NCBI GenBank assembly: GCA_027491735.1
Contig: JAOZGP010000017.1
Location: 1 to 52,271 of the forward strand
Direction of reading: 5' to 3'
Source of the DNA: Thermoproteota archaeon
GTDB lineage: Archaea; Korarchaeota; Korarchaeia; Korarchaeales; Korarchaeaceae
Length of the DNA stretch: 52,271 nucleotides
Shown here: piece after piece, positions 1,273 to 25,880 of the stretch
How positions within the stretch are numbered: position 1 is the first letter of the stretch
How the letters are laid out: every line of letters starts with the position of its first letter
Translations under genes and position numbers: made by a program
Notes under the pieces: generated by a model
The model's database searches: none
Told to the model about the DNA's origin: nothing
Seen by the model: the letters and a program-made list of their open reading frames with translations, nothing else

Positions 1273-2883
1273 TCACGGATGGAGAGGTCCCCCTCCCATC
1301 ACGTGGATCGGTGGGTTCCAGCCGGCTATTATGGACATTGCCACCAGAGCTATGAATGAGAAGAGGGTCAGCTCCCTGAGGGCTGATGTGAGGTATCCCG
1401 TTCTTACTGTGCCGAGTGTCAGAGCGAGGAGAATGCTTGTTAGAAGACATTGCATCATAAGACCTTCCTTTAAGGTATCAGCTACGGCCTGAGAGGGAAC
1501 AGGGAGGTTGAGGAACGTCACCAGCACCACCATGCTCACTATCACAAACATGTAGGAGAGCATGGCTGTTATGTAGTTGCCCTTCTTGTCACCCTCCAGC
1601 TCATACCATACCTCCTTCGTTCTCATCATGAAATCAGATATCGTTTTGAAGGCGTCCTGTATATCGACACCAGAGCGGAGTGCCACTATTATCAGAAGAG
1701 CTGAGAGTCTAGATATCGACTGTCTCAGGGAGAGGGCTATGTTCTCTAGGATGTCTGAGTAAGGAAGCTTTAATTTTGCCCAATATTTTATTCTCAATAC
1801 CATATCCCTCAAAGACCTATAGCTGGCCTTCATGTCAAGAATAGCGCTTGAGAAGGACTTACCTGTCCTTAACTCTGTAAAGAGATCCTCCAAGAATGAA
1901 GGAAAGTCGAAAGCTATTCTGTAAAGCTTTCTTTCGATCTTTACTATTGACAGGGTTCCGGCCAGAGCTCCACATCCGATGGCAATGGCAAGTTTACCCC
2001 ATAGACTAGGATGGGCCAGGAACCTCATGAACTGTCCTGTCAGGGGGTCGGCCTGAAGGGAGGTAGGAATTATTCTGTAAAGGTAATTACTCGACACGAA
2101 CGCTGCCACTGCCACAGCAGCGAAGACCCCCCAGGATCTGAGGACATCCCTCTTAGAGAAGCTGAAATACTTGGGGATGAGTATCCTGAAAAGTATGAGG
2201 AAGAAAGGAGTTGGGAGAACTGATGTCAGAAGAACGAGGTTCGAGATGCCACCACCTCCGAATCCGCTCACAAGCGTCTGGAAGGTGAACATCATTATAG
2301 AGACGAAAGGAAACACCGTAGCTGTAAGCACGTAGATTATCAGGACCATCATCAGAAGCTCAACGGTTTTTTTTAGAGAGATCATGGTCTTCTCTATGGT
2401 TTCCTCTGTCTCCCTACGGAGCATCTCCCCTATGGCCTCCCCTCGGGTGAAATAATAGTCCCTTATCCTCATGAAGACGTTCTTCCAGGCCTCGCTGGGA
2501 GTTATCCTCGTGTTGAACTCGAGGCCTTCTATAGTTCCGGCAGCAAAAAGTCTATCCGCAGCTCTGTTAAAGAACTTGCAAACCTCCTCATCCTCAGAGA
2601 TCTGAGCCACAGATCTCAGGCTATCACCAACAGATCTGCCCGCATCCTGAAGAAGCCACAGCGTCGATAAATAAGCCCACATGTTCTTCTCCAGCTTGGA
2701 TGCTAGATTCATTCTGGAGAGGAGTGGGCTTATCAGAAAGAGCCCTACTGGAATGAAGGTTATAAGAAAAAGTCTTACCGGGTCTGTGAGAAATCCTGTT
2801 CTATAGGCTATCGAATCGAAAAGAAACATGAACCCCCCTATCATTGTTACCCTAAGGAGGAACCTGCCTAGCGTGGTTCTCAT
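1273..2883 (-). CDS. Type IV pilus membrane platform protein (TadC/PilC/ArlJ-like, two T2SSF domains)
   Basis: 536 aa with multiple TM segments and two T2SSF-like repeats (YLSTLWLLQDAGRSVGDSL; FPSFLEDLFTELRTGKSFSSAI); directly downstream of the secretion ATPase. Confidence 0.85.
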   Translation of the reverse strand: MRTTLGRFLLRVTMIGGFMFLFDSIAYRTGFLTDPVRLFLITFIPVGLFLISPLLSRMNLASKLEKNMWAYLSTLWLLQDAGRSVGDSLRSVAQISEDEEVCKFFNRAADRLFAAGTIEGLEFNTRITPSEAWKNVFMRIRDYYFTRGEAIGEMLRRETEETIEKTMISLKKTVELLMMVLIIYVLTATVFPFVSIMMFTFQTLVSGFGGGGISNLVLLTSVLPTPFFLILFRILIPKYFSFSKRDVLRSWGVFAAVAVAAFVSSNYLYRIIPTSLQADPLTGQFMRFLAHPSLWGKLAIAIGCGALAGTLSIVKIERKLYRIAFDFPSFLEDLFTELRTGKSFSSAILDMKASYRSLRDMVLRIKYWAKLKLPYSDILENIALSLRQSISRLSALLIIVALRSGVDIQDAFKTISDFMMRTKEVWYELEGDKKGNYITAMLSYMFVIVSMVVLVTFLNLPVPSQAVADTLKEGLMMQCLLTSILLALTLGTVRTGYLTSALRELTLFSFIALVAMSIIAGWNPPIHVMGGGPLHP

Positions 2884-2905
2884 GCCTGCGCTCTCGAAGA
2901 AGAAC

Positions 2906-4417
2906 TCACTTCGCAGGTACTTTCACCTCCTTCTCTTTTCTCTTCTCCCTAACCCTTCTCTCAAGCTCAGCCATCTTATTGAGGTATTCCTCATAGAGGG
3001 CGTCGAGGGGTAAGTTGTACCTTACGTGTATCTCCTCCAGGAGCTTGCTATCCCTCAAGGGATCGCCCACCAGTCCGAGATCCGGCTGCCTGATGAACAA
3101 GTCATGCAGCACCACGTCCTGCCTGATGTCATCGTAAAGAATTTCTGCTATCCTAAATACTCCTCTCGAGGTTCCTTCCCTCCTATTGAGCACTGCTATC
3201 TTGAAGCTAGCTATCTGCTCAGCTGTCAGATTTATCGGATCAGATTTGAGTCTCTGTATGAGACCCTCTAGTGTGTTACTGTGGAACGTTGTAAGGCTCG
3301 TGTGTCCCAGGTTTATGAACTGAATGAGAAGTCTCGTCTCAGCCCCTCTGCTTTCGCCCACAACAACGTAGTCTGGCCTCATCCTCAGAACGTCTCTCAA
3401 TAGATCCGGAATCTCCATCCCCCTCTCGCCCATCCCAGGAGGTTGCCCTATAAGTGAGGTCCAGTTTCCATGAAGTGGTAGATATATCTCTGGGGTGTCC
3501 TCGACCGTAACTATGTGAGCCTGCCTTGGAAGCAGGGATAGAAGAGCATTGAGAAGAGTCGTCTTGCCTGATCCCGTCTCCCCGACTATGAAGCCAGACA
3601 TCCCGTGTTCCACCACAAGCCAGAGATATGCCGCCGCTTCCATCGTCAGAGCTCCGTACATTATCAAGTCCTCAATGCTAGGTCTTTTTGTGAACCTCCT
3701 CACCGTGAATATAGTTCCTCCACCACTCATGGCTGAACCAAAGAGTGCATGCACTCGGCTTCCGTCAGGGAGCCGACCTTCGAGTCTAGGTTTCGCAAGG
3801 GAGATCTGTTTCCCTATATGTTCAGCGAACTTGAGAACGATTCTCCTAGCGTCATCCTCCTGTAGGTTTATCTCAGTTCTCAACCAGTTGGCCACGTCAG
3901 CACAGTAAACATAAACATATCTGGAACCCCTGGCCGGGAGAGTGAGGTCCTCTATGTAGGGATCGTGCATCAGAGGGTCTATCGGACCGAAGCCCTCTAT
4001 GTCCCTGTACAGATGGTATATTATGTTGTTCTTCAGTCTCTCATCCATGGGGAGTTTGAGGGATTTCATCGCTCTGGTAGCTGCCTCCTCATAAATCTCT
4101 TCCATCTTTTCTTTGGATGAAAGATCTACTTTTAGAAGCACATACTCCTTGCCTATGTTCAGGAGATCCTCGGCATATTCCTCAGGGAGTTGAGCCTCCA
4201 CTAACACGTAGGTGTTACCTCTGATACCCCTGTAGGCGAAATCGGGAACAAGTTCCACGACATTGCTAAGGTTCATTGACTCTATCACATCTCTCGGATG
4301 AGGAAGATCTACTCTCTCCAGCCTCTTTCTCCTCTTTTTCTCCTTCTTCTCTGATTTCTGTTCTTTAGTTTTGTCTTTTTTCCTTCTTCTGAGGGAGAAC
4401 TTGGGCATCTTTACCAA
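2906..4417 (-). CDS. Type IV pilus assembly ATPase (PilB/TadA/ArlI-like, VirB11 family)
   Basis: GFGPIDPLMHDPYIED, Walker A GETGSGKT, Asp box TVEDTPE, LRMRPDYVVVGESRG, His box GHTSLTTFH. Confidence 0.93.
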   Translation of the reverse strand: MVKMPKFSLRRRKKDKTKEQKSEKKEKKRRKRLERVDLPHPRDVIESMNLSNVVELVPDFAYRGIRGNTYVLVEAQLPEEYAEDLLNIGKEYVLLKVDLSSKEKMEEIYEEAATRAMKSLKLPMDERLKNNIIYHLYRDIEGFGPIDPLMHDPYIEDLTLPARGSRYVYVYCADVANWLRTEINLQEDDARRIVLKFAEHIGKQISLAKPRLEGRLPDGSRVHALFGSAMSGGGTIFTVRRFTKRPSIEDLIMYGALTMEAAAYLWLVVEHGMSGFIVGETGSGKTTLLNALLSLLPRQAHIVTVEDTPEIYLPLHGNWTSLIGQPPGMGERGMEIPDLLRDVLRMRPDYVVVGESRGAETRLLIQFINLGHTSLTTFHSNTLEGLIQRLKSDPINLTAEQIASFKIAVLNRREGTSRGVFRIAEILYDDIRQDVVLHDLFIRQPDLGLVGDPLRDSKLLEEIHVRYNLPLDALYEEYLNKMAELERRVREKRKEKEVKVPAK

Positions 4418-4429
4418 CTCTTAGGTGAG

Positions 4430-4450
4430 GAAAGACATTATAAAAGGTAT
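4430..4450. promoter_or_regulatory. Putative bidirectional TATA box between the ATPase and pilin genes
   Basis: TTATAAAA at 4438-4445 in a 64-bp divergent spacer; on the minus strand TTTTATAA lies about 21-28 nt upstream of the ATPase TTG. Confidence 0.45.
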
Positions 4451-4481
4451 TGCATCAGGAAGTTAGTCTTGAGGTCTGATC

Positions 4482-4928
4482 ATGAGGAGATCTGGTGGTA
4501 TATCCAACGTCGCTATAGTGGTCATTTTGATGGTCCTGGGGGTTATCCTTGCGATCTTAGTCTACTTCGTTGCCAGTGGAGCCACAGTAGGATGGTTCAG
4601 GACCAGAAGTTCCAGTTATGCAGCTACAAACCTGGAGATAGTTGGGTTTACTCCGACAGATCCTCCTGATCATCCACAGGCGTCCGTTCTGATCAAAAAC
4701 ATTGGACCTGTTTCAGTCCACTACGACAATATCCAAGATTGGCAGGTCTTCATTGACGAGCGCCAATGCTCAGTAGCCCTCCTCAATCCTCCTCCTCCAA
4801 ACGACTTAGATGTGAACAGACAGTTGAACATAACCTTGAGCTGTTATGTCGATCCCACGACCTCACACACAATCAAGGTATTCGGGCCTCAGGCCACTCA
4901 GGCATTCGCCGGTTGGAGTCCAGGTTGA
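4482..4928 (+). CDS. Archaeal type IV pilin (class III signal peptide)
   Basis: MRRSGG/ISNVAIVVILMVLGVILAILVY: basic leader, Gly at -1, hydrophobic helix; beta-rich domain with IKNIG motif and a Cys pair. Confidence 0.85.
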   Translation: MRRSGGISNVAIVVILMVLGVILAILVYFVASGATVGWFRTRSSSYAATNLEIVGFTPTDPPDHPQASVLIKNIGPVSVHYDNIQDWQVFIDERQCSVALLNPPPPNDLDVNRQLNITLSCYVDPTTSHTIKVFGPQATQAFAGWSPG

Positions 4929-5641
4929 GATCATTGCTCAGTCCTTTGGTCCCATCTTTAATATCTGTAGGCATGTTGTTCGCTGCTAGCTATCAGGACC
5001 TCAAGTACAGGATGATAGATGATAAGATCTGGGTTCTTTTTTCAACGTTGGGCATTCTGGCGGACATCTTCCTCGTCAGAGAGAACTGGTTTATTTATTT
5101 GTGGAGCTGTGTTCCCCTGACAGTTGTGCTTGTTTTTGCCTGGATCCTGAAGGTCATGGGGGAGGCAGATGTGTTAGCATACGCCTCTTTACTTGTGACA
5201 CAACCTGTATACCTGTTCGGTTGTGGATATATGCCTCCTGCTATGTCCACATTCATATACTCAAACGCTCTCTTTTCGATGACACTGCTCTACAATTTGG
5301 CCGTCAACCTCAGAAACCTCCGAGAGGGAATCTTCGATGGATTCAAGGAGACGCTCATCAGAAAGGTTTTGGCCATGTTCGTGGCTAGAGCAGTTCCTCG
5401 CAGCAGATTTGAAGATTTCAGATATGCCAGCCTAGCAGAAGCAATGACCGAAGGAACGAGAAGGTTTGTTTTTAGCTCAGCTTTATCTCCTGTAAGGGAA
5501 GAAAAGGTTCCCATTGAGGGAAAGAAGAATGAATATGTTTGGATCATTCCAGCATATCCTCTCCTACCATTCATCCTTGCGGGACATTTGATCACGCTAA
5601 GCCTTGGTGGACCCATCGCTCTCCTCTTTTATCCACGGTAA
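4925..5641 (+). CDS. Prepilin peptidase (A24, FlaK/PibD-like)
   Basis: YQDLKYRMI (first catalytic Asp), MGEAD (GxxD), C-terminal WIIPAYPLLPFILAG. In-frame TTG at 4925 overlaps the pilin TGA and is preferred over the ORF-track start at 4766. Confidence 0.88.
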   Translation: MRSLLSPLVPSLISVGMLFAASYQDLKYRMIDDKIWVLFSTLGILADIFLVRENWFIYLWSCVPLTVVLVFAWILKVMGEADVLAYASLLVTQPVYLFGCGYMPPAMSTFIYSNALFSMTLLYNLAVNLRNLREGIFDGFKETLIRKVLAMFVARAVPRSRFEDFRYASLAEAMTEGTRRFVFSSALSPVREEKVPIEGKKNEYVWIIPAYPLLPFILAGHLITLSLGGPIALLFYPR

Positions 5642-6861: not shown

Positions 6862-7281
6862 ATGTCCGGAGTTACGAAGAAGGTGATGGACCTCACACCT
6901 GGTTCTGATAACATCGAGATCAGGGTCAGGGTCCTTGAGGTCACTGAACCTCGTGTGGTGGAAACTAGAAGTGGAAGCAGAACCCTTTCCGAGGCTATAG
7001 TTGGGGATGAGACGGGGAGGGTCAGTCTGACTTTGTGGGGAGAACACGCAGGAAAACTAGCTGAGGGACAGGCAATAGCAATACACAACGCTTTCGCAAC
7101 AGCCTATAGGGGAAAGGTTCAGCTGAATGTTGGAAAGAGAGGAAGCATAGAGGAAATAGATGATTCTGAGGTGGTCAAGGCAGAGGAGGTTCCCGAGGAT
7201 TCTCCGGAGGCCCCTGAGAACTGGAGGCCGAGAAGGAGGTACGGTGGGGGATATTCCAGAGGATATAGAAGAAGATTCTAA
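6862..7281 (+). CDS. ssb: Single-stranded DNA-binding protein (single OB fold, crenarchaeal type)
   Basis: VGDETGRVSLTLWG OB-fold motif, QLNVGK, acidic linker and Arg/Gly/Tyr-rich tail. Confidence 0.9.
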   Translation: MSGVTKKVMDLTPGSDNIEIRVRVLEVTEPRVVETRSGSRTLSEAIVGDETGRVSLTLWGEHAGKLAEGQAIAIHNAFATAYRGKVQLNVGKRGSIEEIDDSEVVKAEEVPEDSPEAPENWRPRRRYGGGYSRGYRRRF

Positions 7282-15780: not shown

Positions 15781-16815
15781 TCAGAAGGGGTTGTATCCCT
15801 CTTGGATTAGCTCAGCCGCCTCCAATGCGTGGTACGTTATTATTATGTTGGCCCCAGCCCTCCTTATGGATGTGAGGATCTCAAATATGACCTTACTCTC
15901 ATCGATCCATCCCATGGTAGCCGCCGCCTTCACCATGGAGTACTCACCACTGACGTTATAGGCTGCAAGCGGATAGTGGGGAAACTCGCTCTTGATGAGT
16001 CTTATAACATCCAGATAGGCCAGGGCTGGTTTCACCATCAGGATATCGGCTCCCTCACCCACATCAAGAGCGGCCTCCTTTATGGACTCAAAGGAGTTGC
16101 GAGGATCCATTTGATGAGATCTCCTGTCACCAAATTGCGGAGCCGAACTTGCGGCTTCCCTGAAGGGACCATAGAAGGAGGAAGCATATTTCACCGAGTA
16201 GCTCATTATGACCACATCCTCGTAGCCTTCCCTGTCGAGGGCCTCTCTTATGGCCGCGACCATTCCGTCCATCATTCCCGAGGGAGCTACTATATCTGCT
16301 CCGGATTCAGCGTGACTCAGAGCAACTTTTCCTAGGATCTCTAGGGTTAAGTCGTTATCTATCTTCCAACACTCCCCTTTGCACCTCCCGTCCCTGATGA
16401 CGAGTCCACAGTGTCCATGCGAGGTGTATTGACAGAGACAGACGTCCGTGGCCACAACGAGGTCAGACCCAAAGGAGCTCTTCAGCAGCTTGACAGCCTT
16501 CTGAACCACCCCTCTGCGATCGTATGCTGAGCTACCCCTCTCATCCTTGGACCTGGGTATACCGAACAGGAGAACTGACCTTATCCCGAGATCAGTTGCC
16601 TTCTGAGCGATTTTGACGAGGGAATCGAGTGGGTATCTGTAATATCCGGGCATTGAGGGGATTTCTTTGGGCTCAGTTAATCCCTCCTCAACGAACATCG
16701 GCATCATCAAGCTCTCTGGAGCTAACCTGGTCTCAGCAACAATGTCACGAAGAGTTGAAAGCGCCCTCAATCTTCTAAGTCTGATCCTGGGAAAACTCAC
16801 CTTCTCGATCACCAC
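15781..16815 (-). CDS. hemB: Porphobilinogen synthase (Zn-type ALAD)
   Basis: [48 protein letters not shown]. Confidence 0.96.
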
Positions 16816-18025
16816 ATAACATCTCTGCTATCTGATTTAACCTTGACATATCTCCTCTCTCAGCCGCCATCCTGGCGTACATGAAGACGGGATGGAGAAC
16901 CTTCCTCACTATCGACCGGCTCATCATCTCCAATAGGAACTTCACATCACCTTCAACCTCCACTCCCTTGGACTTTAACGACGATATGGCCCTTCTCAGC
17001 TCCCTTTTCCTTATCTCCTCAGCCCTTGAGACTACTCTCTCCAGAACCTCGTCGGCCACTCTCCTGTTGAGCAGCCTGACGAAGAGCTCTATCTCCTCAC
17101 TCAGGATGGACTCCACCTTGGGAAGTTCCTTCTCCCTCCTCCCCCTGTTCTCTTCCACTATCCTCTCTAGGTCCTCCATGGTCACCAACCTGGCGTTTGG
17201 TCCTGGATCCGAGATGGCTGGGGGTACGGATATGTCTACTATAAGCAGATCTCTTCCAGGCAGATCCTCCCTTGATAGTATCGGACCACCGGAAACTGCG
17301 AGGAACACTGCTTCAGATGTGATCAACTCATCCCTTATCCTGTCCAGACCTCCCCATCGAGCTCCAACCCTCTCCGCTAAAGATCTTGCTCTATGGACCG
17401 TCCTGTTCAGGATACAGAGGTTCGCCCCTTTTGAGGAGAGCATTGTGGCTAGAAGCCCTCCAGCCTTACCAGCCCCTATGATGACGACTTTTTTCCCTTC
17501 TAAACCGCTTAAAGTTTCTTCCGCCAACCTAATGGCTGCTGAGGGAACGCTTAAGGCTCCTTTAGATATTTCAGTTTCCCTCCTCACTCTTTTACCTACT
17601 ATGACTGCTCTATGAAAAAGGAGTCTTAGGTAGGGGCCTAGAGAGCCTCTCATCGAGGCGTCTTCCATGGCTTGTTTGACCTGACCAAGTATCTCGTTCT
17701 CGCCTAGTAGCAGGGAGTCGACGCCGGAGGCCACCCTGAACAGATGCTCCACAGTAGTAAGGCCGTGAACGATCTCGGCTTTTTCCGATACATCGATAAC
17801 CCTCCTTGAGAGAAGATCGAGGAGGATCTCCGTCACCCTCTCCGTTTGCTCCCCATACCAATAGATCTCGAATCTGTTGCAGGTGCTCAGTACTGTGAGC
17901 TCGGGAACAGCTCCTATGAGCCCTAGGTAGATCTCTTTCGGGGGAATGGATGAGGCTGCCCTTACAGCGTCCAGCCCAGATAACCTGTGATTTATCAGAA
18001 GCGCGTGGTAGTTCTCCACGGACAT
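16775..18025 (-). CDS. hemA: Glutamyl-tRNA reductase
   Basis: [42 protein letters not shown]; likely start ATG 18025. Confidence 0.95.
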
Positions 18026-18107
18026 CCTCAACCATGTTCCTGATGAAGACAAAAGCTAAAAAGTGCGAGTGTTTTAAGAGCAGGATTCTCTAAAGATAAA
18101 AATAACT

Positions 18108-18539
18108 TTATGGTTTGATATTCGTCACATATATAATGAAGTCGTCGGTGGGAGTCATGTTCTTCGCAACGAAACGGATCTTTCCTGCGTATATTTTCGG
18201 TGGAGCTATTACAGGATAGTTTGATATGTAGGTCGCAACTCCTCTGCCGCTGATGGTTCCAGCATATATGACGGCAGTGACTGTGTGCGTTCTGTTGTCT
18301 ATCGCTATCTCGAGATGTCTCCCAGGACCGACATCCACGTAGATATCACGCTCGCCTGAGAGAGTTCCCAGATCTATCATCCGGGACATGAAGGCTATTT
18401 GATCCGCCACCGTGTTAGCTACTCTCTGGGCTTGCGTTCTCAGGAAATCTCTGAGGAAAGCTGGCTTTATGTAGAGAAAGAAGGATGCGATCAGCACGCT
18501 TATCACTATTATTATGGCCCAGACAACTGGCCGCTCCAT
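18108..18539 (-). CDS. Pilin-like protein with N-terminal hydrophobic helix
   Basis: MERPVVWAIIIVISVLIASFFLYI, then amphipathic helix (AQRVANTVADQI) and beta-rich tail; ATG 18539 preceded by GGGAGGG, 2 nt after the upstream stop. Confidence 0.7.
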   Translation of the reverse strand: MERPVVWAIIIVISVLIASFFLYIKPAFLRDFLRTQAQRVANTVADQIAFMSRMIDLGTLSGERDIYVDVGPGRHLEIAIDNRTHTVTAVIYAGTISGRGVATYISNYPVIAPPKIYAGKIRFVAKNMTPTDDFIIYVTNIKP

Positions 18540-18541
18540 GT

Positions 18542-19018
18542 CTAACCCTCCCAGTCTAGCTCCACCTGATAGGCTCTGGTGTAGTTCACCAAGACTGTGT
18601 TCTCCCTTCCAGCAATGCTTACTCCAGTCGTCGTAAAGGTCCACCCAGAGGTAGCGTTAATCTGCACCTCAACAGCGCTCCCCTTTGGGACTATACCCAC
18701 ATAGGTCACAGCACCGCTGGTCACGTTGACAGCCGCTTGATATGGAGGTGCTCCGTAAACCACAAACCTTATCGAATTTGGGCCAGAGATCACCACGGTG
18801 TTGGGCGGAAGGCTTATCCTCACAGTGGCCGCCGAGCCAACACCAGCCTCGGTGACCTTCTCTATGATGTCGCTTAGAGCGATCGCCGCTGCTCTAGCAG
18901 CATAGAACCTCTCCTCCGCTGCTCTATGTTGTATGTACGGGTATACGATGTTGAAGACGATCACTATGAGAGCGACGCCGAGGAGGAACGCTACCACGCC
19001 AACAACCACTTGGTTCAT
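18542..19018 (-). CDS. Pilin-like protein
   Basis: MNQVVVGVVAFLLGVALIVIVFNIVYPYI, ALSDIIEKV..G.GS...VRISLP pattern resembling archaeal minor pilins; ATGA coupling to the upstream gene. Confidence 0.72.
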   Translation of the reverse strand: MNQVVVGVVAFLLGVALIVIVFNIVYPYIQHRAAEERFYAARAAAIALSDIIEKVTEAGVGSAATVRISLPPNTVVISGPNSIRFVVYGAPPYQAAVNVTSGAVTYVGIVPKGSAVEVQINATSGWTFTTTGVSIAGRENTVLVNYTRAYQVELDWEG

Positions 19019-20091
19019 CCGACCACCCTCACCTTGAGGAGCACCATGTAGGGGAGAACATAGAAGGGTATGTGCACCGTGCCGCTGGCATCAACAACGG
19101 TTATGTTGAAGGGTCCCTGAATGAAAAATCCAGGGTTCATATCTGGAGGGATGAGTTGTATTGCTAAACCGCTTCCTGTTAAGATCTCTCCCTTTCTATT
19201 GCTTATTGTCCAGGTCGGAGCCCCGGCCCCTGAGATATCTATGGTCTCCCCTAGGAGATAGAGATAGCTCTGATTGCCGGAGAAGGTTAGGATTATGCTG
19301 GGAGCGCTTCCTTTTTTGAAATCGCTGGGTCCATAGGTGAAGGTCCAGGTCTTGGAGGGAGTTGAAGCTGATGCATTGGGATAGTATTTTAGGGTTACAT
19401 CTAAGCTGTTTGGGGGATCCTCAAAGATAAAGGATCTATATGATGGAATGGAGACATTCAGTATAGCTCCTCCATTCTCAATGGGGGCGTAGGCATTACC
19501 AGAGGAAGGATGCATCCCCCACTCGTCTGTGAATGAGTAATCTAAAGTTACATACGCGCCCCCCTCTGTCCTGGGGACCCCCGCATGATGATATGCTATG
19601 ACGAAAAATGTCAGGTTATCAAACGTGTAAGTGCGTATAATACCTCCTGAAACTGAGTAGTATATCTCATCTGTGTAGCTGAGGGCATACACCTTGTCGG
19701 GGGTGCAGTTCCAGCTCACCATAACGGGTGCCACTGCTGAGGCGCTGGTCCCTCCAGATTTACTGGCATTATACAGGACAAAGGTCTTATTATTACCGTC
19801 TTTATAGACAAAAGTCAAGTTCACACCAATGCCCACCCCTTGCTCGCTCTCGACAGCACTCAAGAAGTTTCTGACCTCGTTGCTGAAATCAGCATAGCTG
19901 TAAGTTCCATTTATAAAATCGTACTTCCACATACCAGCTATAACTGAGGCCACGTCCCTGGCCAGAAGCCTCCTGCCTGTCAGTCCGGAGGAGGTCGCTG
20001 TGGTTCTGGAGTAGCTGTATATAGCAAACAGGGCCACAGTTATGAGAAATATAACTATTATGACCTCAAGCGGCTCAGTCGTCATAATCAA
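19015..20091 (-). CDS. Large pilin-like / adhesin-like secreted protein
   Basis: TEPLEVIIVIFLITVALFAIY N-terminal helix; S/T/N/Y-rich with many N-x-S/T sequons; TTGA coupling. Confidence 0.7.
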   Translation of the reverse strand: MIMTTEPLEVIIVIFLITVALFAIYSYSRTTATSSGLTGRRLLARDVASVIAGMWKYDFINGTYSYADFSNEVRNFLSAVESEQGVGIGVNLTFVYKDGNNKTFVLYNASKSGGTSASAVAPVMVSWNCTPDKVYALSYTDEIYYSVSGGIIRTYTFDNLTFFVIAYHHAGVPRTEGGAYVTLDYSFTDEWGMHPSSGNAYAPIENGGAILNVSIPSYRSFIFEDPPNSLDVTLKYYPNASASTPSKTWTFTYGPSDFKKGSAPSIILTFSGNQSYLYLLGETIDISGAGAPTWTISNRKGEILTGSGLAIQLIPPDMNPGFFIQGPFNITVVDASGTVHIPFYVLPYMVLLKVRVVG

Positions 20092-20552
20092 CCACCTGAA
20101 ACTGTCAAAGTGACAACCACACGAGTGCCGTTCGGGAACAGCGCATAAGCCTTGGCCGAAGCTGAATTACCCCTTATCAAGCCTGAACCTATCCTCAGGA
20201 GGGTCCCATCTGATGGATTGTATATCGTAATCAATACATCGTCCTCGGGTGGCACTATCCCCAGCTTGAACGCTGTGTAGTTGTTCCTGGAGCAGGTGAT
20301 GCACAACAGAAGCTGACTCTTGTTTATTACATACGCCGATCCATTGATCGCTATTCCAACGACGGGCGGTTCATTGTTCATCAAGCAGGGGGTGAAGTTG
20401 CCTGGGTTTTCAAGCAACTGCTGTAAAGCCTCCCTGGCCTGGTCATCGAGAGAGGAATGACTTGTTTGGAGAGATTTAATGAAGAATATGGCGAAGAAAG
20501 CGTAAACAAATATTATGAAGAGTGCCACCATGAAGGCAAACGCTTGTCTCAC
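20088..20552 (-). CDS. Pilin-like protein
   Basis: GTG 20552 gives MRQA/FAFMVALFIIFVYAFFAIFFI; A..ALQQLL.NPG motif; three Cys; N-glycosylation sequons. Confidence 0.68.
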   Translation of the reverse strand: MRQAFAFMVALFIIFVYAFFAIFFIKSLQTSHSSLDDQAREALQQLLENPGNFTPCLMNNEPPVVGIAINGSAYVINKSQLLLCITCSRNNYTAFKLGIVPPEDDVLITIYNPSDGTLLRIGSGLIRGNSASAKAYALFPNGTRVVVTLTVSGG

Positions 20553-20712
20553 TCTCCCAACCCCTTCATCTGAGTCTCTCCCTCCAACCTGGGCTCGAAC
20601 AATACATCTCAACATAATTGCCGTAACGGATTATTAAAAGATGAGGAAAGAATTTTGAAAAAGATTTTTGGAGGGCGCTTAATCTTCACGCAGGCGTTTA
20701 GGAGAATTTTAT

Positions 20713-21630
20713 CTAGGATTGCCCGAACATTCTTGGAGGGTAGAAGCGCTTAGAGTCGAGGAAGCAGTGAAGCCAGTCGAAGAAGTTATCATACCAGTAA
20801 AGAGGTAGATAGTTGACTTTGTTACCTGAAAGCGTAACTTGTATCACATCACCGTAGTTTCCCGCCGGGCTCCTCCAGAGGACAAATAGACCGGTGAAAG
20901 CGACACCAGGCACCTTGAAGGTCCACCTTTTAACTCTGATCTCAGTAGCTGAGGGCATATAGAAGTTCAAGGTTGTCTGATTCTCACCAAAAGGTTTCAG
21001 ACCGCGAACTGTGTTCCCTGAGGCTGATATGGGCACTATTAACCACCATGGAAGTATAGCATCAGGTCCTATGAAGGTCATTTCAGCATTATAGTCACTG
21101 AATGTGGGATTTAATACAAGGAAGAGTGCATGCCAATGGTCAGGAAATCTACCACGAGGTCCATAAGCGCAGAGCTTGTTTGGAATAAAGTAAAGAGGAC
21201 CTGGGGTTGGTCCTCCAGTTGATCCTCCAGTCCCTCCCCCACCGTAGTGAGGTTTCATGAAGTAGTTCACGTCACCAGCAACTCCGTCGAAGAACGTCGA
21301 GCCCCTCCTTATGGAGTAGGCCACCAACACCTTATCCGAAACTATGTAGCGGGAGTAGTTATTAAGATGCACGCCCTTTGGAGAGATCGTTCGATTGAGG
21401 ACCCTGATCTGACCATCGAGCCAGGCATACTTGTCATGATCACTGACAGGGAGGTACTTGACCGTTCCAGCAAGCTGATTTATAGCATCTGACAGATCAA
21501 CGAAGTCGCTTGATGTATCGGCATGCACCTGAACGGTAGTAGGGTTTACATACATGGCTAAGGTGATTATCATCACTAGAACGGTGAAGCCTATGAGAAG
21601 CACGCCGCCACTTCCTATCCTCATCCTCAT
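20713..21630 (-). CDS. Two-domain pilin-like / adhesin-like protein
   Basis: MRMRIGSG/GVLLIGFTVLVMIITLAMY leader plus hydrophobic helix, GGGGTGGSTGGPTPGP linker, aromatic-rich C-terminal domain. Confidence 0.7.
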   Translation of the reverse strand: MRMRIGSGGVLLIGFTVLVMIITLAMYVNPTTVQVHADTSSDFVDLSDAINQLAGTVKYLPVSDHDKYAWLDGQIRVLNRTISPKGVHLNNYSRYIVSDKVLVAYSIRRGSTFFDGVAGDVNYFMKPHYGGGGTGGSTGGPTPGPLYFIPNKLCAYGPRGRFPDHWHALFLVLNPTFSDYNAEMTFIGPDAILPWWLIVPISASGNTVRGLKPFGENQTTLNFYMPSATEIRVKRWTFKVPGVAFTGLFVLWRSPAGNYGDVIQVTLSGNKVNYLPLYWYDNFFDWLHCFLDSKRFYPPRMFGQS

Positions 21631-21750: not shown

Positions 21751-23022
21751 TCATGGCAGAACCCTTTCAACGTCCCTAGGGAAGAGGGCTGCCTCTCTTA
21801 TGTTTTGTAAGTTTAACATCTTGTACACTGTTCTCTCCAGCCCCATGGCAAATCCTCCGTGAGGAGGAGCTCCGTACCTGAAGAACTTCGTGAACCACTC
21901 CAAGGAGTTCAGATCTAGTCCTTTCTCCCTTATCTGTGAGACTAGCACCTCATACCTGTGCTCCCTCTGACCTCCCGAGCTCAACTCCTCGCCTTTGTAC
22001 AGCAGATCCACGCTTCTGGCCCAGAGATCCTCGGCCTTCATAACATAGAAGGGCTTCGTCTTGAAGGGGAATCTGTTGATGAAGAGGAAATCCGTTCCGT
22101 ACTTCTCCCTTGCGTACCTCCAGAGCAGCTTCTCAGACTCGGTGTCATAGTCCTCTCCGAATGGAATCTCCTTTCCTAGATCCTCAAGTATGTTGTATAT
22201 CTCAGGAAACCTTAGCTCTGGGAAGGGTGTTTTTGGTACATCAAGATCGACGTTTAGTAGTTCCAGTTCCTTACTTCTCTCCTCCAGCACCCTTCTGAGG
22301 CCAGCCACTAAGAGCTCCTCCTCAACCCTCATCACATCCCCCTCATCAGATATGAAAGCCATTTCCACAGCTATTGACCTGAACTCGCTTATGTGTCTGG
22401 CCGTGTGACTTGGTTCAGCTCTCCAGTTTGGTCCTACGTCGTATATCTTCGTGAAACCACCTATTATGGTGAGCTGTCTGTGAAGCTGTGGATCTTGCCT
22501 TAGATAGGCCTTTTTGTCGAAGTATTTAACCTCGAAGACCTCAGCGCCGCTCTCGCTGGCAGCCCCTATTATAGCAGGGGTGAAGACCATCAGGAAGCCA
22601 TGTGAGTCGAGCCAGTCAATTACTCCCCTGAGGAAGCTGGTCTCTATCTTGAAAATAGCTTGTACCTCAGGTCTTCTGAGATCCAATGGTCTATAGTTCA
22701 TCCGAGTCGGAAAGAGCGCTGGAGTCTTCCAGTTGGGATCAAGAGGCAGTTTCCTCTCTGATGTCGAGTGAACCACAATGCTCTTCGGAATGACCTCCAT
22801 GTCAACGGCCTTAGCTATCTTCTTTTCGCTCATAAACCCAGTCGCCTCAATCACGCTCTCCTGAGTAAGATCATCGATCTGGCTGAGAAGCTCATCAGGC
22901 ACCTCACTCTTCTTGAGTGTGAGTTGAACCCTTCCTTGAGGAGTCCTCAGCACCACGAACTTTATCTTCCCGATACTTCTTATCTCGCTGACCCAGCCTC
23001 CTATTCTAACCTTCTCAGCCAT
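21751..23022 (-). CDS. aspS: Aspartyl-tRNA synthetase (archaeal type)
   Basis: OB anticodon domain (GWV..IR..GKIKF), RPLDLR, motif 2 WRAE..RHISEF, SSGGQREH, motif 3 PPHGGFAMGLER; ATG 23022 after GAGGAGG. Confidence 0.9.
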   Translation of the reverse strand: MAEKVRIGGWVSEIRSIGKIKFVVLRTPQGRVQLTLKKSEVPDELLSQIDDLTQESVIEATGFMSEKKIAKAVDMEVIPKSIVVHSTSERKLPLDPNWKTPALFPTRMNYRPLDLRRPEVQAIFKIETSFLRGVIDWLDSHGFLMVFTPAIIGAASESGAEVFEVKYFDKKAYLRQDPQLHRQLTIIGGFTKIYDVGPNWRAEPSHTARHISEFRSIAVEMAFISDEGDVMRVEEELLVAGLRRVLEERSKELELLNVDLDVPKTPFPELRFPEIYNILEDLGKEIPFGEDYDTESEKLLWRYAREKYGTDFLFINRFPFKTKPFYVMKAEDLWARSVDLLYKGEELSSGGQREHRYEVLVSQIREKGLDLNSLEWFTKFFRYGAPPHGGFAMGLERTVYKMLNLQNIREAALFPRDVERVLP

Positions 23023-25880
23023 ATCGATATCCTCCTCTCCCCTACTCTCCAGTCCTTGTGATAACATCCTTTCGGAGCTCTTCCGAACTCCAGGAGGACA
23101 GCGTCCACCTCATTCATGATATCGGATATGAGGTCTCCCAGGTCCTCTCTTTCGCACCCATCTATGTAGACCTCGACCTTCTCCACACCCTTCCTCAACC
23201 CCATCTCCTTCCTCATCTGTTGTATCCTCCTTATGATCTCCCTGGCAAATCCCTCCTTCTTAAGCTCCTCCGTCAACTCCACGTTGAGGTAGATCCTTCC
23301 TTCTGAAAGCCCAGCATCCACCCAATGAGAGGAGGTAAGCTCAAAATTGTCAAGGAACCTCACCGATTTGACGTTGGTCTCGGAGGCTATCACGTCTCTG
23401 AAAACTCTCGCTTCCACCAGATCCCCTGTTATCACGAGCTCTGGCAATGGTTGCCTTATCTTCAGCTTGTTATTCGTTCTCATACTGTTTACCACTGTTA
23501 TCACCTTCTTAGCCAGCTCCATTTTGAACTCAAGGTTCTTGTCTATGGAGCTCACATCCACCCCAGGAAACCTCAACATGACCACACTCTCGGGATCTCT
23601 CTCCCCTCTGAAGGCCTCTTGGTATATCTTCTCGGCCATTAGAGGAGCAAATATGGCGAGTATCGGTAGGGTTTTCGCTGTTATATCTCTTAAAATCTTG
23701 GAAACTGTGGGATCGCTCTTTATCCTCTTCCTCACAACTCTGAGGTACAGATGGCTCAGATCGTCAACCATAAAGTTGAGAAACTCATTTAAGGCGTCAT
23801 GAAGTCTATAACTTGACAAGGACTCGTCCACGTTCCTGATCATGCTATTAAGTCTTGACAATATCCATCTATCCTCACTCTTAGGAGCAATCTCTCCCGA
23901 TATCCTCGCGTACTCTGTTATGAACACGTACACATTCCATACCACATTGAGCTTCCTCCTGGCCTCATCCATTCCGAACCAGGTAAACCTTAGATCGCTC
24001 CATGGCACCTTGGACAGGACGAAAACCCTAAACACATCGGCTCCATAGCGCTCCAATATGACCCCCACCGGAACATAGTTGCCCTTGCTCTTGTGCATCT
24101 CCTCCCCCCTCTCATCGAGCATGAACCCATGAGACATCACCGTTCTGTAGGGGGCGCTACCGAAGATCAGATATCCCATCCTCAGCAGAGAGAAGAACCA
24201 GCCTCTGAACTGATCATGTCCCTCCACAATGAAGTCCACAGGTCTGAGCTTCTCGTACTCGTCGCTCTTTGGATATTCCAGGCTCGCGAAGAAGGCCACA
24301 CCTGAATCGTACCACACATCGGCGACGTCTGGAACCCTCCTCATCAACCCTCCGCACTTCGGACAGCTCCAGATTATCTCATCAACCCAGGGTTTATGTA
24401 AGTCCTCTGGAACCTTTCCTGACTTCTCCTTAAGTTCCTCTTCCCCTCCTATGACCTCCACATGACCGCACTTTCCGCAAAGCCATACAGGGAGAGGAGT
24501 GCCCCAGTATCTCTGCCTGGATATTATCCAGTCCTCCAGCTCCATTAGCCAGTTCTTGAACCTCTTCTCCCCTCCCCAAGCAGGAACCCATCTGACCTTC
24601 GATATCTCCTCTATCAGTCCGTCCTTGAGGTCTGAAAGCTGTACGTACCATTGCTCGGTGGCCCTTATTATCAGAGGGGACTTACACCTCCAGCACACTG
24701 GATACCTGTGAGTTATTTTTCCTTCATGAAATAGGAAGCCTTTCCTTCGCAGATCCTCTACTATCAGCCTGTTGGCGTCCTTTATGAACATCCCGTCGTA
24801 CCTTCCGGCCTCTTCCGTGAAAACGCCTTTATCATCCACAGGACTCAGGACGGGCATGCCGTAGTCCCTATGAGCCACCTCGTAGTCCTCCTTTCCGTGC
24901 CCGGGAGCGGAGTGCACACAGCCGGTCCCTTCATCCATCGTGACGTACTTGTCACTCAGGACGACCTTGTGCTCCACCTCCGCTTGAACTGGAACCTCCT
25001 CCTCGAGAGGATTCCTGTACTTCAGTCCCTCCAGATCCCTCCCTTTGAGCTTTTCCACTACTTGGTACTCCCCAACGCCGGCCTCGCTCATCACATGCTC
25101 GAGCCTCCTCTCCGCCAGTATCAGGACCTCGTCCACGACCTCCACCTTGACATAGTCCTCGTCTGGGTGAACCATGACTGCCACGTTGGCAGGTAGGGTC
25201 CACGGTGTGGTTGTCCAAATCAGTATGAATGTGTTTTCGTCATCCTCCACCGGGAACTTCACATATATGGATGGATCAGTCAGCACCTGATACTCGTGCA
25301 CCTCATAATCGGAGAGAACAGTCTCACATCGGGGGCACCAGTGGACGACCTTCAATCCACGCTTCAGTCTGCCGCTCTCCCATATTCTCTTGAACCCCCA
25401 CCAGGCTGAATTTATATAGCTCCTCCTGAGCGTCAGGTAGGGATTTCTCCAGTCCAGGGAAACGCCCAACCTCTCGAACTTCTTGGTCATCTCAGACAGA
25501 TTGTTCAAAGCCAGCTCTCTGCACTTCTCCACGAATCTATCAATGCCATATCTCTCTATATCCTTCTTTGTCCTGAAGCCAAGGTTCTTCTCCACGGTCA
25601 CTTCTATTGGAAGTCCGTGTGTGTCCCATCCAGGCTGATCTCTGACGTTATATCCCTTGGATCTCCAGTATCTCACAACCACATCCTTTATGAACTTGTT
25701 CCAGCATGTTCCAGGATGAGGCTCACCGCTGGATGGGTATGGAGGCCCATCCAGGAAGTAGAACTTCTTCCCGCAGGAGAGAGATCTCCTCAGTTTATCG
25801 TAGATCTCGTTATCCTTCCAGAACCTTAATATTTCCTCCTCGTACTCCTGAGGTGAGAATCTCTTCGAGAGGACCTTCAT
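23001..25880 (-). CDS. ileS: Isoleucyl-tRNA synthetase
   Basis: DGPPY, HPGT (HIGH), GWDTHGLP, WTTTPWTLP, GTGCVHSAPGHG, WIISRQRYWG, DQFRGWF, EMHKS (KMSKS); likely start ATG 25880. Confidence 0.96.
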   Translation of the reverse strand: MKVLSKRFSPQEYEEEILRFWKDNEIYDKLRRSLSCGKKFYFLDGPPYPSSGEPHPGTCWNKFIKDVVVRYWRSKGYNVRDQPGWDTHGLPIEVTVEKNLGFRTKKDIERYGIDRFVEKCRELALNNLSEMTKKFERLGVSLDWRNPYLTLRRSYINSAWWGFKRIWESGRLKRGLKVVHWCPRCETVLSDYEVHEYQVLTDPSIYVKFPVEDDENTFILIWTTTPWTLPANVAVMVHPDEDYVKVEVVDEVLILAERRLEHVMSEAGVGEYQVVEKLKGRDLEGLKYRNPLEEEVPVQAEVEHKVVLSDKYVTMDEGTGCVHSAPGHGKEDYEVAHRDYGMPVLSPVDDKGVFTEEAGRYDGMFIKDANRLIVEDLRRKGFLFHEGKITHRYPVCWRCKSPLIIRATEQWYVQLSDLKDGLIEEISKVRWVPAWGGEKRFKNWLMELEDWIISRQRYWGTPLPVWLCGKCGHVEVIGGEEELKEKSGKVPEDLHKPWVDEIIWSCPKCGGLMRRVPDVADVWYDSGVAFFASLEYPKSDEYEKLRPVDFIVEGHDQFRGWFFSLLRMGYLIFGSAPYRTVMSHGFMLDERGEEMHKSKGNYVPVGVILERYGADVFRVFVLSKVPWSDLRFTWFGMDEARRKLNVVWNVYVFITEYARISGEIAPKSEDRWILSRLNSMIRNVDESLSSYRLHDALNEFLNFMVDDLSHLYLRVVRKRIKSDPTVSKILRDITAKTLPILAIFAPLMAEKIYQEAFRGERDPESVVMLRFPGVDVSSIDKNLEFKMELAKKVITVVNSMRTNNKLKIRQPLPELVITGDLVEARVFRDVIASETNVKSVRFLDNFELTSSHWVDAGLSEGRIYLNVELTEELKKEGFAREIIRRIQQMRKEMGLRKGVEKVEVYIDGCEREDLGDLISDIMNEVDAVLLEFGRAPKGCYHKDWRVGERRISIWLRRLE

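Follow-up and report, generated by a model that had tools for sequence, protein, structure and literature searches.

A cluster of five genes in a korarchaeal genome is best read as a lineage-specific, minor-pilin-like accessory set of a type IV pilus (type 4 filament) system, a reading to which we give a probability of roughly 55%. The cluster occupies positions 18108 to 21630 of the window, by which we mean the whole 52,271-nucleotide stretch of DNA that was analyzed (contig JAOZGP010000017.1 of assembly GCA_027491735.1, a 1.36-Mb assembly in 41 contigs that is 88% complete). We have named the genes g1 to g5. Membership of the five proteins in this pilus system, whatever their part in it, is a broader claim, for which our confidence is high. 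A first-pass annotation of the window, made from the letters alone, had proposed a minor-pilin or tip complex, partly independent of the prepilin peptidase and assembled by the pilus machine encoded at 1273-5641.

All five genes lie on the minus strand. The first, g1 (20713..21630, start at 21630), encodes a large pilin-like protein of 305 amino acids with a class III-like leader. An intergenic gap of 97 nucleotides (nt) separates it from g2 (20088..20552), which gives 154 amino acids from a GTG at 20552 and consists of an N-terminal helix and a body rich in N-glycosylation sequons; its frame is open upstream to an ATG at 20615, which would give 175 amino acids if used. The biggest of the five, g3 (19015..20085), has 356 amino acids from its ATG and combines a long helix with three beta-rich domains. 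An alternative TTG start for g3 at 20091, two codons upstream, would give 358 amino acids and a TTGA overlap with g2; otherwise g2 ends 2 nt ahead of the g3 ATG. The g3/g4 junction is an ATGA overlap and the g4/g5 junction is a 2-nt spacer. The product of g4 (18542..19018) has 158 amino acids and is pilin-shaped, and that of g5 (18108..18539) has 143 amino acids and is the best conserved of the five. The open reading frames (ORFs) and their junctions thus bear out the earlier description of five co-oriented genes, the last four tightly coupled. Because intact orthologs with 26-87% identity recur in conserved gene sets, we take the five ORFs to be more than chance. The starts that had been chosen also agree with the orthologs, several of which in each family share the same N-terminus and have an in-frame stop 0-8 codons upstream.

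The connection to a pilus machine comes from the relatives, whose loci were analyzed by our own ORF calling followed by BLAST and hidden Markov model searches. The five families are found inside one type IV pilus locus in at least ten cases (L011, L012, L020, L014, L013, L018, L019, L043, L044 and L045), together with an A24 peptidase, PilA-type pilins, an ATPase and a platform protein, and the set is interleaved with the pilin genes. Three genomes (G009, G005 and G015) have the order A24 peptidase, pilin, g1-g2-g3-g4-g5, second pilin, ATPase, platform. The order is g1, pilin, g4-g2-g3-g5, ATPase, platform in three others (G014, G004 and G007), and in G043 and G008 all five genes are contiguous with the ATPase, platform and pilins. 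A genome of a second family (G027) carries pilins, a weak g1, g4, g2, g5, a diverged g3-like gene of 319 amino acids, the ATPase (49% identity) and the platform, with three additional large genes interspersed.

Co-occurrence points the same way. Defining the orthologous ATPase as one with at least 53% identity to that of the window, we found it in 15 of the 36 genomes of the family; g5 occurs in 13 of them and is missing from all 21 genomes without the ATPase (0/21), a comparison that is not a statistical test, since the 36 genomes are kin. The two genomes that have the ATPase and lack g5 are 71-72% complete and divided into 180-290 contigs. Within the 13 genomes that bear it, g5 lies at most 5 kb from the orthologous ATPase in nine, and on another contig, at contig ends, in three. 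The largest genus (labelled genus g4, distinct from gene g4) has g5 in 1 of its 21 genomes, and in this sole positive genome g5 and the ATPase stand side by side. Synteny in the relatives and this phylogenetic profile, which was run for g5, together sustain the proposed link to the machine at 1273-5641.

The machine genes of the window encode a PilC/TadC-like platform protein (1273..2883, minus strand; Pfam T2SSF, E 2.5e-09), a PilB/FlaI-like secretion ATPase (2906..4417, minus strand; Pfam T2SSE, E 1.4e-30), a major pilin (4482..4928, plus strand) in which the leader M-R-R-S-G-G precedes I-S-N-V and whose alignment has invariant G6, S8 and V10, and an A24 prepilin peptidase (4925..5641, plus strand, with the ORF listed from 4766; Pfam Peptidase_A24, E 2.9e-08, and Arc_PepC_II, E 1.6e-05). 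The set is 12.5 kb from the closest of these genes, and g5 is 13.7 kb from the ATPase gene. The earlier statement that no ATPase or peptidase is adjacent therefore stands for this window and fails for the relatives, where all are in the same locus. Compared with locus L014 of the same genus, the machine block of the window is inverted and about 12.5 kb now lies between block and set; a rearrangement would have separated the motor, the major pilin (4482-4928) and the A24 peptidase from the five genes in this genome. The set is flanked here by housekeeping genes, AspRS (21751-23067) and HemA (glutamyl-tRNA reductase; 16775-18052). A 139-amino-acid ORF with an Arg/Gly/Tyr-rich C-terminal tail (6862-7281) is situated between the pilus core and the set. 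Some of the relatives have enlarged ATPase genes. In G009 (L011:13503-16247) the ATPase ORF has 914 amino acids and its match to the ATPase of the window is interrupted (residues 29-376 and 373-496) by some 1.3 kb of extra in-frame sequence, and in G018 (contig C49) the open frame has 1523 amino acids; both interruptions look like intein insertions.

The position of the set in the window, next to AspRS and HemA and at a distance from the pilus genes, would suit a different reading, in which the five proteins form an adhesion or surface complex that is merely anchored in the membrane and works independently of the pilus machine, the linkage reflecting co-regulated surface genes. The beta-sandwich domains of g3 resemble adhesin or S-layer-type domains, if generically only. 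The ATPase co-occurrence, the interleaving with pilin genes in at least ten loci and the pilin architecture of g4 all speak against such independence, and we regard it as improbable. The ATPase itself brings in another candidate role. Its best NCBIfam match is FlaI (275.7 bits, under the cut-off of 550) and its second-best is the bindosome ATPase BasE (169 bits, cut-off 1000), and g1 combines a class III-like leader with a C-terminal module that varies, so that the five could be cargo or binding proteins displayed by a pilus-like machine, much as Sulfolobus displays sugar-binding proteins that carry class III signals. None of the five matches a substrate-binding-protein family, and neither the sizes (three of them at 143-158 amino acids) nor the fold of g4 are like those of binding proteins; we think this very improbable. 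Both readings rank low because they fit poorly with the synteny and the folds.

If the proteins are minor-pilin-like, their N-termini should be informative about processing. Among ten aligned g1 orthologs the N-terminus reads R-x-G-(S/A)-G followed by (V/I)LL(V/I)GF, with R4, G8, F15 and D45 invariant, and a leader of the form [KR]x0-2 G/A-[SA]-G is present in 10/10 rows. The window's copy has M-R-M-R-I-G-S-G ahead of the hydrophobic helix (R-I-G-S-G before G-V-L-L), which resembles the leader of the pilins of the locus. The other four families begin differently: g2 with M-(R/K/E)-x-x-(F/I/L)-A-F, the nearest relative starting with an ATG at the same M-R-Q-A-F-A-F; g3 with M-x-x-E-P-(L/I)-E, invariant in 14/14 sequences (E4 and E7 counted from Met1); g4 with M-(E/N/S)-x-V-V-(E/V); and g5 with M-(E/R)-(R/Q)-A-V-x-W in 14 aligned sequences, the window's copy having P for A. 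An in-frame stop lies 0-2 codons upstream of the start in 3 g2, 2 g3, 5 g4 and 3 g5 orthologs. For g2 such stops are found 0-4 codons away in 4 orthologs, and for g5 directly ahead of the start in 2. Because these stops exclude longer leaders, we take the almost complete lack of a leader in g2-g5 as real and not as an artefact of the choice of start codon; as far as the sequences tell, the leaders have three or four residues at most. The proposal that most members begin near the mature N-terminus is upheld, and g2-g5 seem to start where a pilin starts after its leader is removed. Profile alignment by hhalign places g4 residue 2 on pilin residue 8 (mature +2), and thus Met1 at mature +1, with a probability of 35%; for the other comparisons with the major pilins the probabilities are 8% for g1 (with the leaders aligned, at this low probability), 3% for g5 and 1% for g3.

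Archaeal class III sites are described as K, R or D followed by A or G in the available part of PMC4371748. We searched for sites with a simple rule of our own, [KRDE][GA] immediately followed by a hydrophobic 18-mer, which is a simplification and not FlaFind. By this rule a site is found in 11/13 of the major pilins of these loci, in 7/10 of the g1 orthologs and in 7/14 for g5; the counts are 3/12 for g2, 3/13 for g4 and 9/14 for g3, the last solely by virtue of an acidic E-A. In this genus even the major pilins have a leader of merely 4-6 residues, and PibD-type peptidases cut engineered leaders of 3-4 residues, FlaK requiring five (from the portion of PMC4307647 on these enzymes). Since leaders as short as these can be processed, g5 and part of g2 may be peptidase substrates as well. 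On this evidence g1 is a plausible substrate of the A24 peptidase, and g3 and g4 are most likely not substrates. Two members, g1 and g2, had been credited with a leader; g1 retains that status as class III-like, and g2 is a weaker second than g5.

An anchoring role like that of ArlF and ArlG (FlaF/FlaG) in the archaellum would, by analogy, fit the evidence equally well, given the missing cleavage sites. Here g2-g5 would be uncleaved, pilin-derived monotopic proteins that stay out of the filament and form a collar or stator at its base, tying the machine to the surface layer (S-layer), and g1 would be the sole true (minor) pilin. FlaF and FlaG are monotopic and immunoglobulin-like (Ig-like) and bind the S-layer (as the relevant portion of PMC4307647 has it), and the archaellum gained its stator by duplication of a filament subunit (according to the text of PMC13705601), so there is a precedent. 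ArlF and ArlG are pilin-derived proteins of about 150 amino acids with an uncleaved helix and an external beta-sandwich body, encoded between the filament and motor genes. The 143-158-residue members of the korarchaeal set resemble them in size and N-terminal anchor and may do so in the beta body; g2-g4 share the monotopic helix without a conserved class III site and have leaders of at most three or four residues; and the set is placed between the filament genes and the ATPase and platform genes, as in archaellum operons. The differences are nevertheless considerable. The korarchaeal locus is not that of an archaellum, judging by an ATPase below the FlaI cut-off (ArlH and ArlX were not searched by family), and a non-rotating pilus has no need of a stator. 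The korarchaeal set counts four to five proteins where the archaellum has two, one member has 356 residues in three domains, and Arch_flagellin gives no significant match, being found at E 0.041 in a single one of 14 g5 members. The strong strain-level variability of g1-g3 described below is also easier to reconcile with exposed parts than with a collar that is buried, the greater conservation of g4 and g5 notwithstanding. We consider the anchoring role the main rival, a possibility clearly less likely than that of a minor-pilin-like set.

The same N-termini admit a bolder version of the minor-pilin-like reading, which we put forward tentatively and think somewhat doubtful. In this version g2-g5, or at least g3 and g4, would be ready-made pilins, with Met1 at mature +1, which enter the start complex or the filament without the peptidase and are swapped as a hypervariable cassette among strains that are closely related; they would be pilin-fold subunits with acidic residues near the start of the helix, such as the invariant E4 and E7 of g3.

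The predicted structures are consistent with pilin-like proteins. A hydrophobic N-terminal helix is seen on each of the five as had been noted, by hydropathy for g1, g2, g3 and g5 and by AlphaFold2 for g3 and g4. The AlphaFold2 model of g4, made with our own alignment, has a predicted local distance difference test score (pLDDT) of 89.6 and a predicted template modeling score (pTM) of 0.77, with a single helix at residues 2-58 followed by nine strands, the 'lollipop' architecture of a pilin as modeled. A Foldseek search of the PDB with this model gave no match at E 0.001 or better, and the structural likeness of g4 is below what the structure-search tool counts as more than a common arrangement. 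The model of g3 (own alignment, pLDDT 87.3, pTM 0.79) has a helix at 5-58 with a low-confidence kink at 27-34, a second helix at 64-82 and then beta structure in three domains. Its Foldseek matches in the PDB are generic multi-domain Ig-like proteins only (complement C3/C5, arrestin and the S-layer protein SbsB), with TM scores of 0.1-0.3. No ArlF/ArlG, archaellin or archaeal pilin chain is among the matches listed by structure alignment; the proteins may nonetheless have one of these folds. Because the last strand of g3 was aligned together with its N-terminal domain, the model suggests that the two beta-sandwich domains are insertions in a pilin body. The proposed scheme of a helix and a beta-rich body is thus supported by models for g3 and g4, which show a long helix at the N-terminus of g3 and, in g4, the architecture of a pilin; for g1, g2 and g5 the body is deduced from sequence. 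Two other features concern the larger proteins. The N-terminal part of g1, about 115 residues, is conserved and is joined by a poly-Gly linker (21223-21270 in the window, residues about 121-136) to a variable C-terminal domain, and in orthologs of another genus (L013:12102-13148) the linker has runs of more than 20 glycines. The g3 orthologs of the genus labelled g2 (L013:9062-10174 and L018:1965-3233) contain a cysteine-rich insertion with many C-x-x-C motifs, which the window's copy lacks and which may form disulfides or bind metal.

Sequons are frequent in several members, as had been claimed. The window copies of g1 to g5 have 3, 5, 10, 3 and 2. The densities per 100 amino acids for the five families are 0.93, 2.70, 2.81, 2.31 and 1.21; over the 1226 ORFs of the genome the median is 0.16 and the 99th percentile 2.39. 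They are dense in g2, g3 and g4, and sequon columns are conserved in the same three families (2, 4 and 1, respectively). Archaeal N-glycosylation acts outside the membrane (so stated in the part of PMC4307647 on this modification), and because the sequons are dense and conserved in position, the bodies are most likely extracellular, the charges that flank the helices of g3 and g4 notwithstanding.

No characterized operon or curated family matches the five, in keeping with the suggestion of an undescribed system. In Pfam and NCBIfam none of the proteins has a match at E 0.01 or better; a sub-threshold DUF1206 match on g2 was set aside as spurious. When matches up to E 10 were admitted, DUF7289 appeared in 2/13 g4 members (best E 0.0055) and Arch_flagellin in the one g5 member mentioned above, both under their cut-offs. 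In the genome of the window DUF7289 matches g4 alone, at 14.3 bits, again under the cut-off. The closest clusters in the ESM Atlas are unnamed archaeal proteins of 130-166 amino acids (scores 0.94-0.95); DUF7311 (0.88) and DUF7266 (0.91), each on 10% of the members of a cluster, serve as leads only. A literature search found no paper on DUF7289, DUF7266, DUF7311, DUF7288 or DUF7287. Paralogy among g2, g4 and g5 was considered and rejected as undemonstrated, the hhalign probabilities being 2-8%. Judged on their sequences, these are five new protein families, with variability of a cassette-like kind and leaders that are unusually short or missing.

Within the scope of the searches, all five families occur in Korarchaeota alone. 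Where homologues carry a name, they are hypothetical proteins assigned to 'Candidatus Methanodesulfokora sp.', 'Candidatus Korarchaeota archaeon' and 'Thermoproteota archaeon'. A single-sequence search with g3 gave 5 clusters among 5.8 billion proteins, a g3 profile gave 12 clusters in an exhaustive read of 1.84 billion representatives, and a g4 profile search gave 12 proteins. Among relatives, g3 is present in 11/41, every one in the same family. One g5 sequence detects its family in 13/36 genomes of the family, and the g5 profile in 15/43 genomes of the phylum, including 2/2 of the second family in the same class (E about 1e-9).

Conservation differs between the genes in the order g5 > g4 > g2 > g3 and g1. 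Amino acid identities to the nearest relative are 87% for g5, 84% for g4, 80% for g2, 68% for g3 and 63% for g1. To the genome G003 the corresponding values are 72, 61, 64, 39 and 46%, where AspRS gives 72-82% and IleRS 66%. G003 contains four versions of the set (L014, L015, L016 and L017). The AspRS flank is common to three contigs at 96.7-99.4% DNA identity and the platform end to two contigs at 95.8%, and between these flanks the proteins are only 28-51% identical for g1-g4 overall (g1 28-39%, g3 29-44%, g2 34-39% and g4 about 50%). Gene order is g1-g2-g3 in one version and g1-g3-g2 in the others. The G003 assembly, with 6% contamination, measures 2.9 Mb, where the three other searched genomes of the genus have 1.0-1.4 Mb, and contains a single full AspRS ortholog plus two fragments at contig ends; because of this the versions are probably alternative cassettes at one locus in co-binned strains. 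Four true paralogous clusters in one genome were dropped as an explanation on the same grounds and are the less likely alternative. Divergent cassettes between near-identical flanks are typical of exposed, strongly selected surface structures. A pair of genes for 85 and 138 amino acids stands beside the cassettes at 92-94% DNA identity (L014:9371-10052, L016:1678-2359 and L015:7622-7879); the pair could delimit the segment that is exchanged, or else form a small module of a mobile or toxin-antitoxin-like type.

Proteins of this kind may be a general trait of the lineage, because a second pilus-like locus in the genome of the window (L037, G000:C36:20000-33000) also has several short-leader helix proteins: at least five more with a single N-terminal helix and a near-zero leader. 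One of 151 amino acids is weakly g4-like (hhalign probability 49%, E 1.8e-4, 78 columns). The locus further contains a FleN/MinD-type ATPase (AAA_31/CbiA), a pilin with the leader M-G-L-K-A, a multi-pass protein of 411 amino acids and a T2SSE ATPase ORF of merely 322 amino acids, for which one in-frame TGA was flagged in the genome search. Far from both pilus loci of this genome, L038 (G000:C40:90000-97000) has a stand-alone PilA-type pilin, of the second kind found in the loci of relatives, with two adjoining pilin-like genes.

Taking these results together, we envisage the minor-pilin-like set as follows. Each protein would insert by its N-terminal helix, leaving a glycosylated, beta-rich body outside the cell. 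The true prepilin-like protein would be g1, cut by the A24 peptidase and displaying a variable C-terminal module on a glycine linker. The g2-g5 proteins would be made in fixed proportion from their coupled genes and would start at, or within three or four residues of, the mature start of a pilin. The helices would bundle on the platform into a minor-pilin-like complex that starts the filament and stays at its tip or base, with the fast-evolving g1 and g3 exposed for binding and the well-conserved pair g4 and g5 in contact with the machine. Of this scheme we infer the formation of the complex, its position on the filament and the identity of the cleaved members.

Several observations weigh against it. 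The class III rule finds no site in any of the five window copies (0/5), and its frequencies in the orthologs, from 3/13 for g4 to 7/10 for g1, are to be set against 11/13 for the major pilins. None of the five proteins matches a curated pilin model, and the profiles show neither mutual homology of g2, g4 and g5 nor homology to pilins beyond the helix (1-35%). Moreover, g3 and g4 are acidic at the N-terminus and basic past the helix, an arrangement for which the positive-inside rule alone would give the opposite topology.

The closest known counterparts of a minor-pilin-like set are archaeal. In the portion of PMC4858521 on locus composition, archaeal pilus loci are described with at least five minor pilins, or with three or four additional untraceable components that are interpreted as a set of minor pilins. 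As that portion presents them, the Epd/clade 1 sets of methanococci and thermococci and the clade 4A extras of Desulfurococcales are alike in having small and one or two large pilin-like genes in a pilus locus with an ATPase, a TadC-like platform, major pilins and a prepilin peptidase, in that the major pilins may be encoded apart, and in fast evolution. The korarchaeal five differ from these sets in having no sequence relation to annotated families and in their restriction to Korarchaeota as far as searched. They differ from the Epd minor pilins also in processing, since those have K/R-G/A sites (in the available part of PMC4371748) and four of the five korarchaeal proteins have no recognizable class III site in this genome.

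A more distant likeness is found in bacteria. The core minor (pseudo)pilins GspH-I-J-K and FimU-PilV-W-X prime filament assembly, and have a canonical class III leader, in which G at -1 is accompanied by E at +5 in all but GspK. Like g2-g5, they are four co-translated pilin-like genes, one of which is enlarged by inserted domains, and a role at the start or tip of the filament would be the likely one by analogy only. They belong to another domain of life, share no sequence similarity with the korarchaeal proteins, and have the canonical leader that the korarchaeal set lacks.

As to earlier work on these organisms, the available part of PMC4858521 has Korarchaea only in its ATPase tree and as being without an archaellum, and the text of a 2026 census (PMC13705601) does not contain 'Korarch', although its supplementary tables may list such loci. 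Among the papers examined from a literature search on korarchaeal pili, none is about such a pilus, by titles and the starts of abstracts.

We know of no surface biology described for Korarchaeota, an uncultured hot-spring lineage, and the present analysis assigns five unannotated protein families to their type IV filament system. From the cassette variation we take the set to be a surface structure under strong selection, for which attachment, cell-cell recognition or virus receptors are the likely forces. The near-absent leaders provide a natural test of whether proteins with the pilin fold can function without leader cleavage, and bear on the origin of ArlF and ArlG from archaellins. If g2-g5, or g3 and g4 among them, were indeed ready-made pilins, they would constitute a peptidase-independent class of type IV filament subunits.

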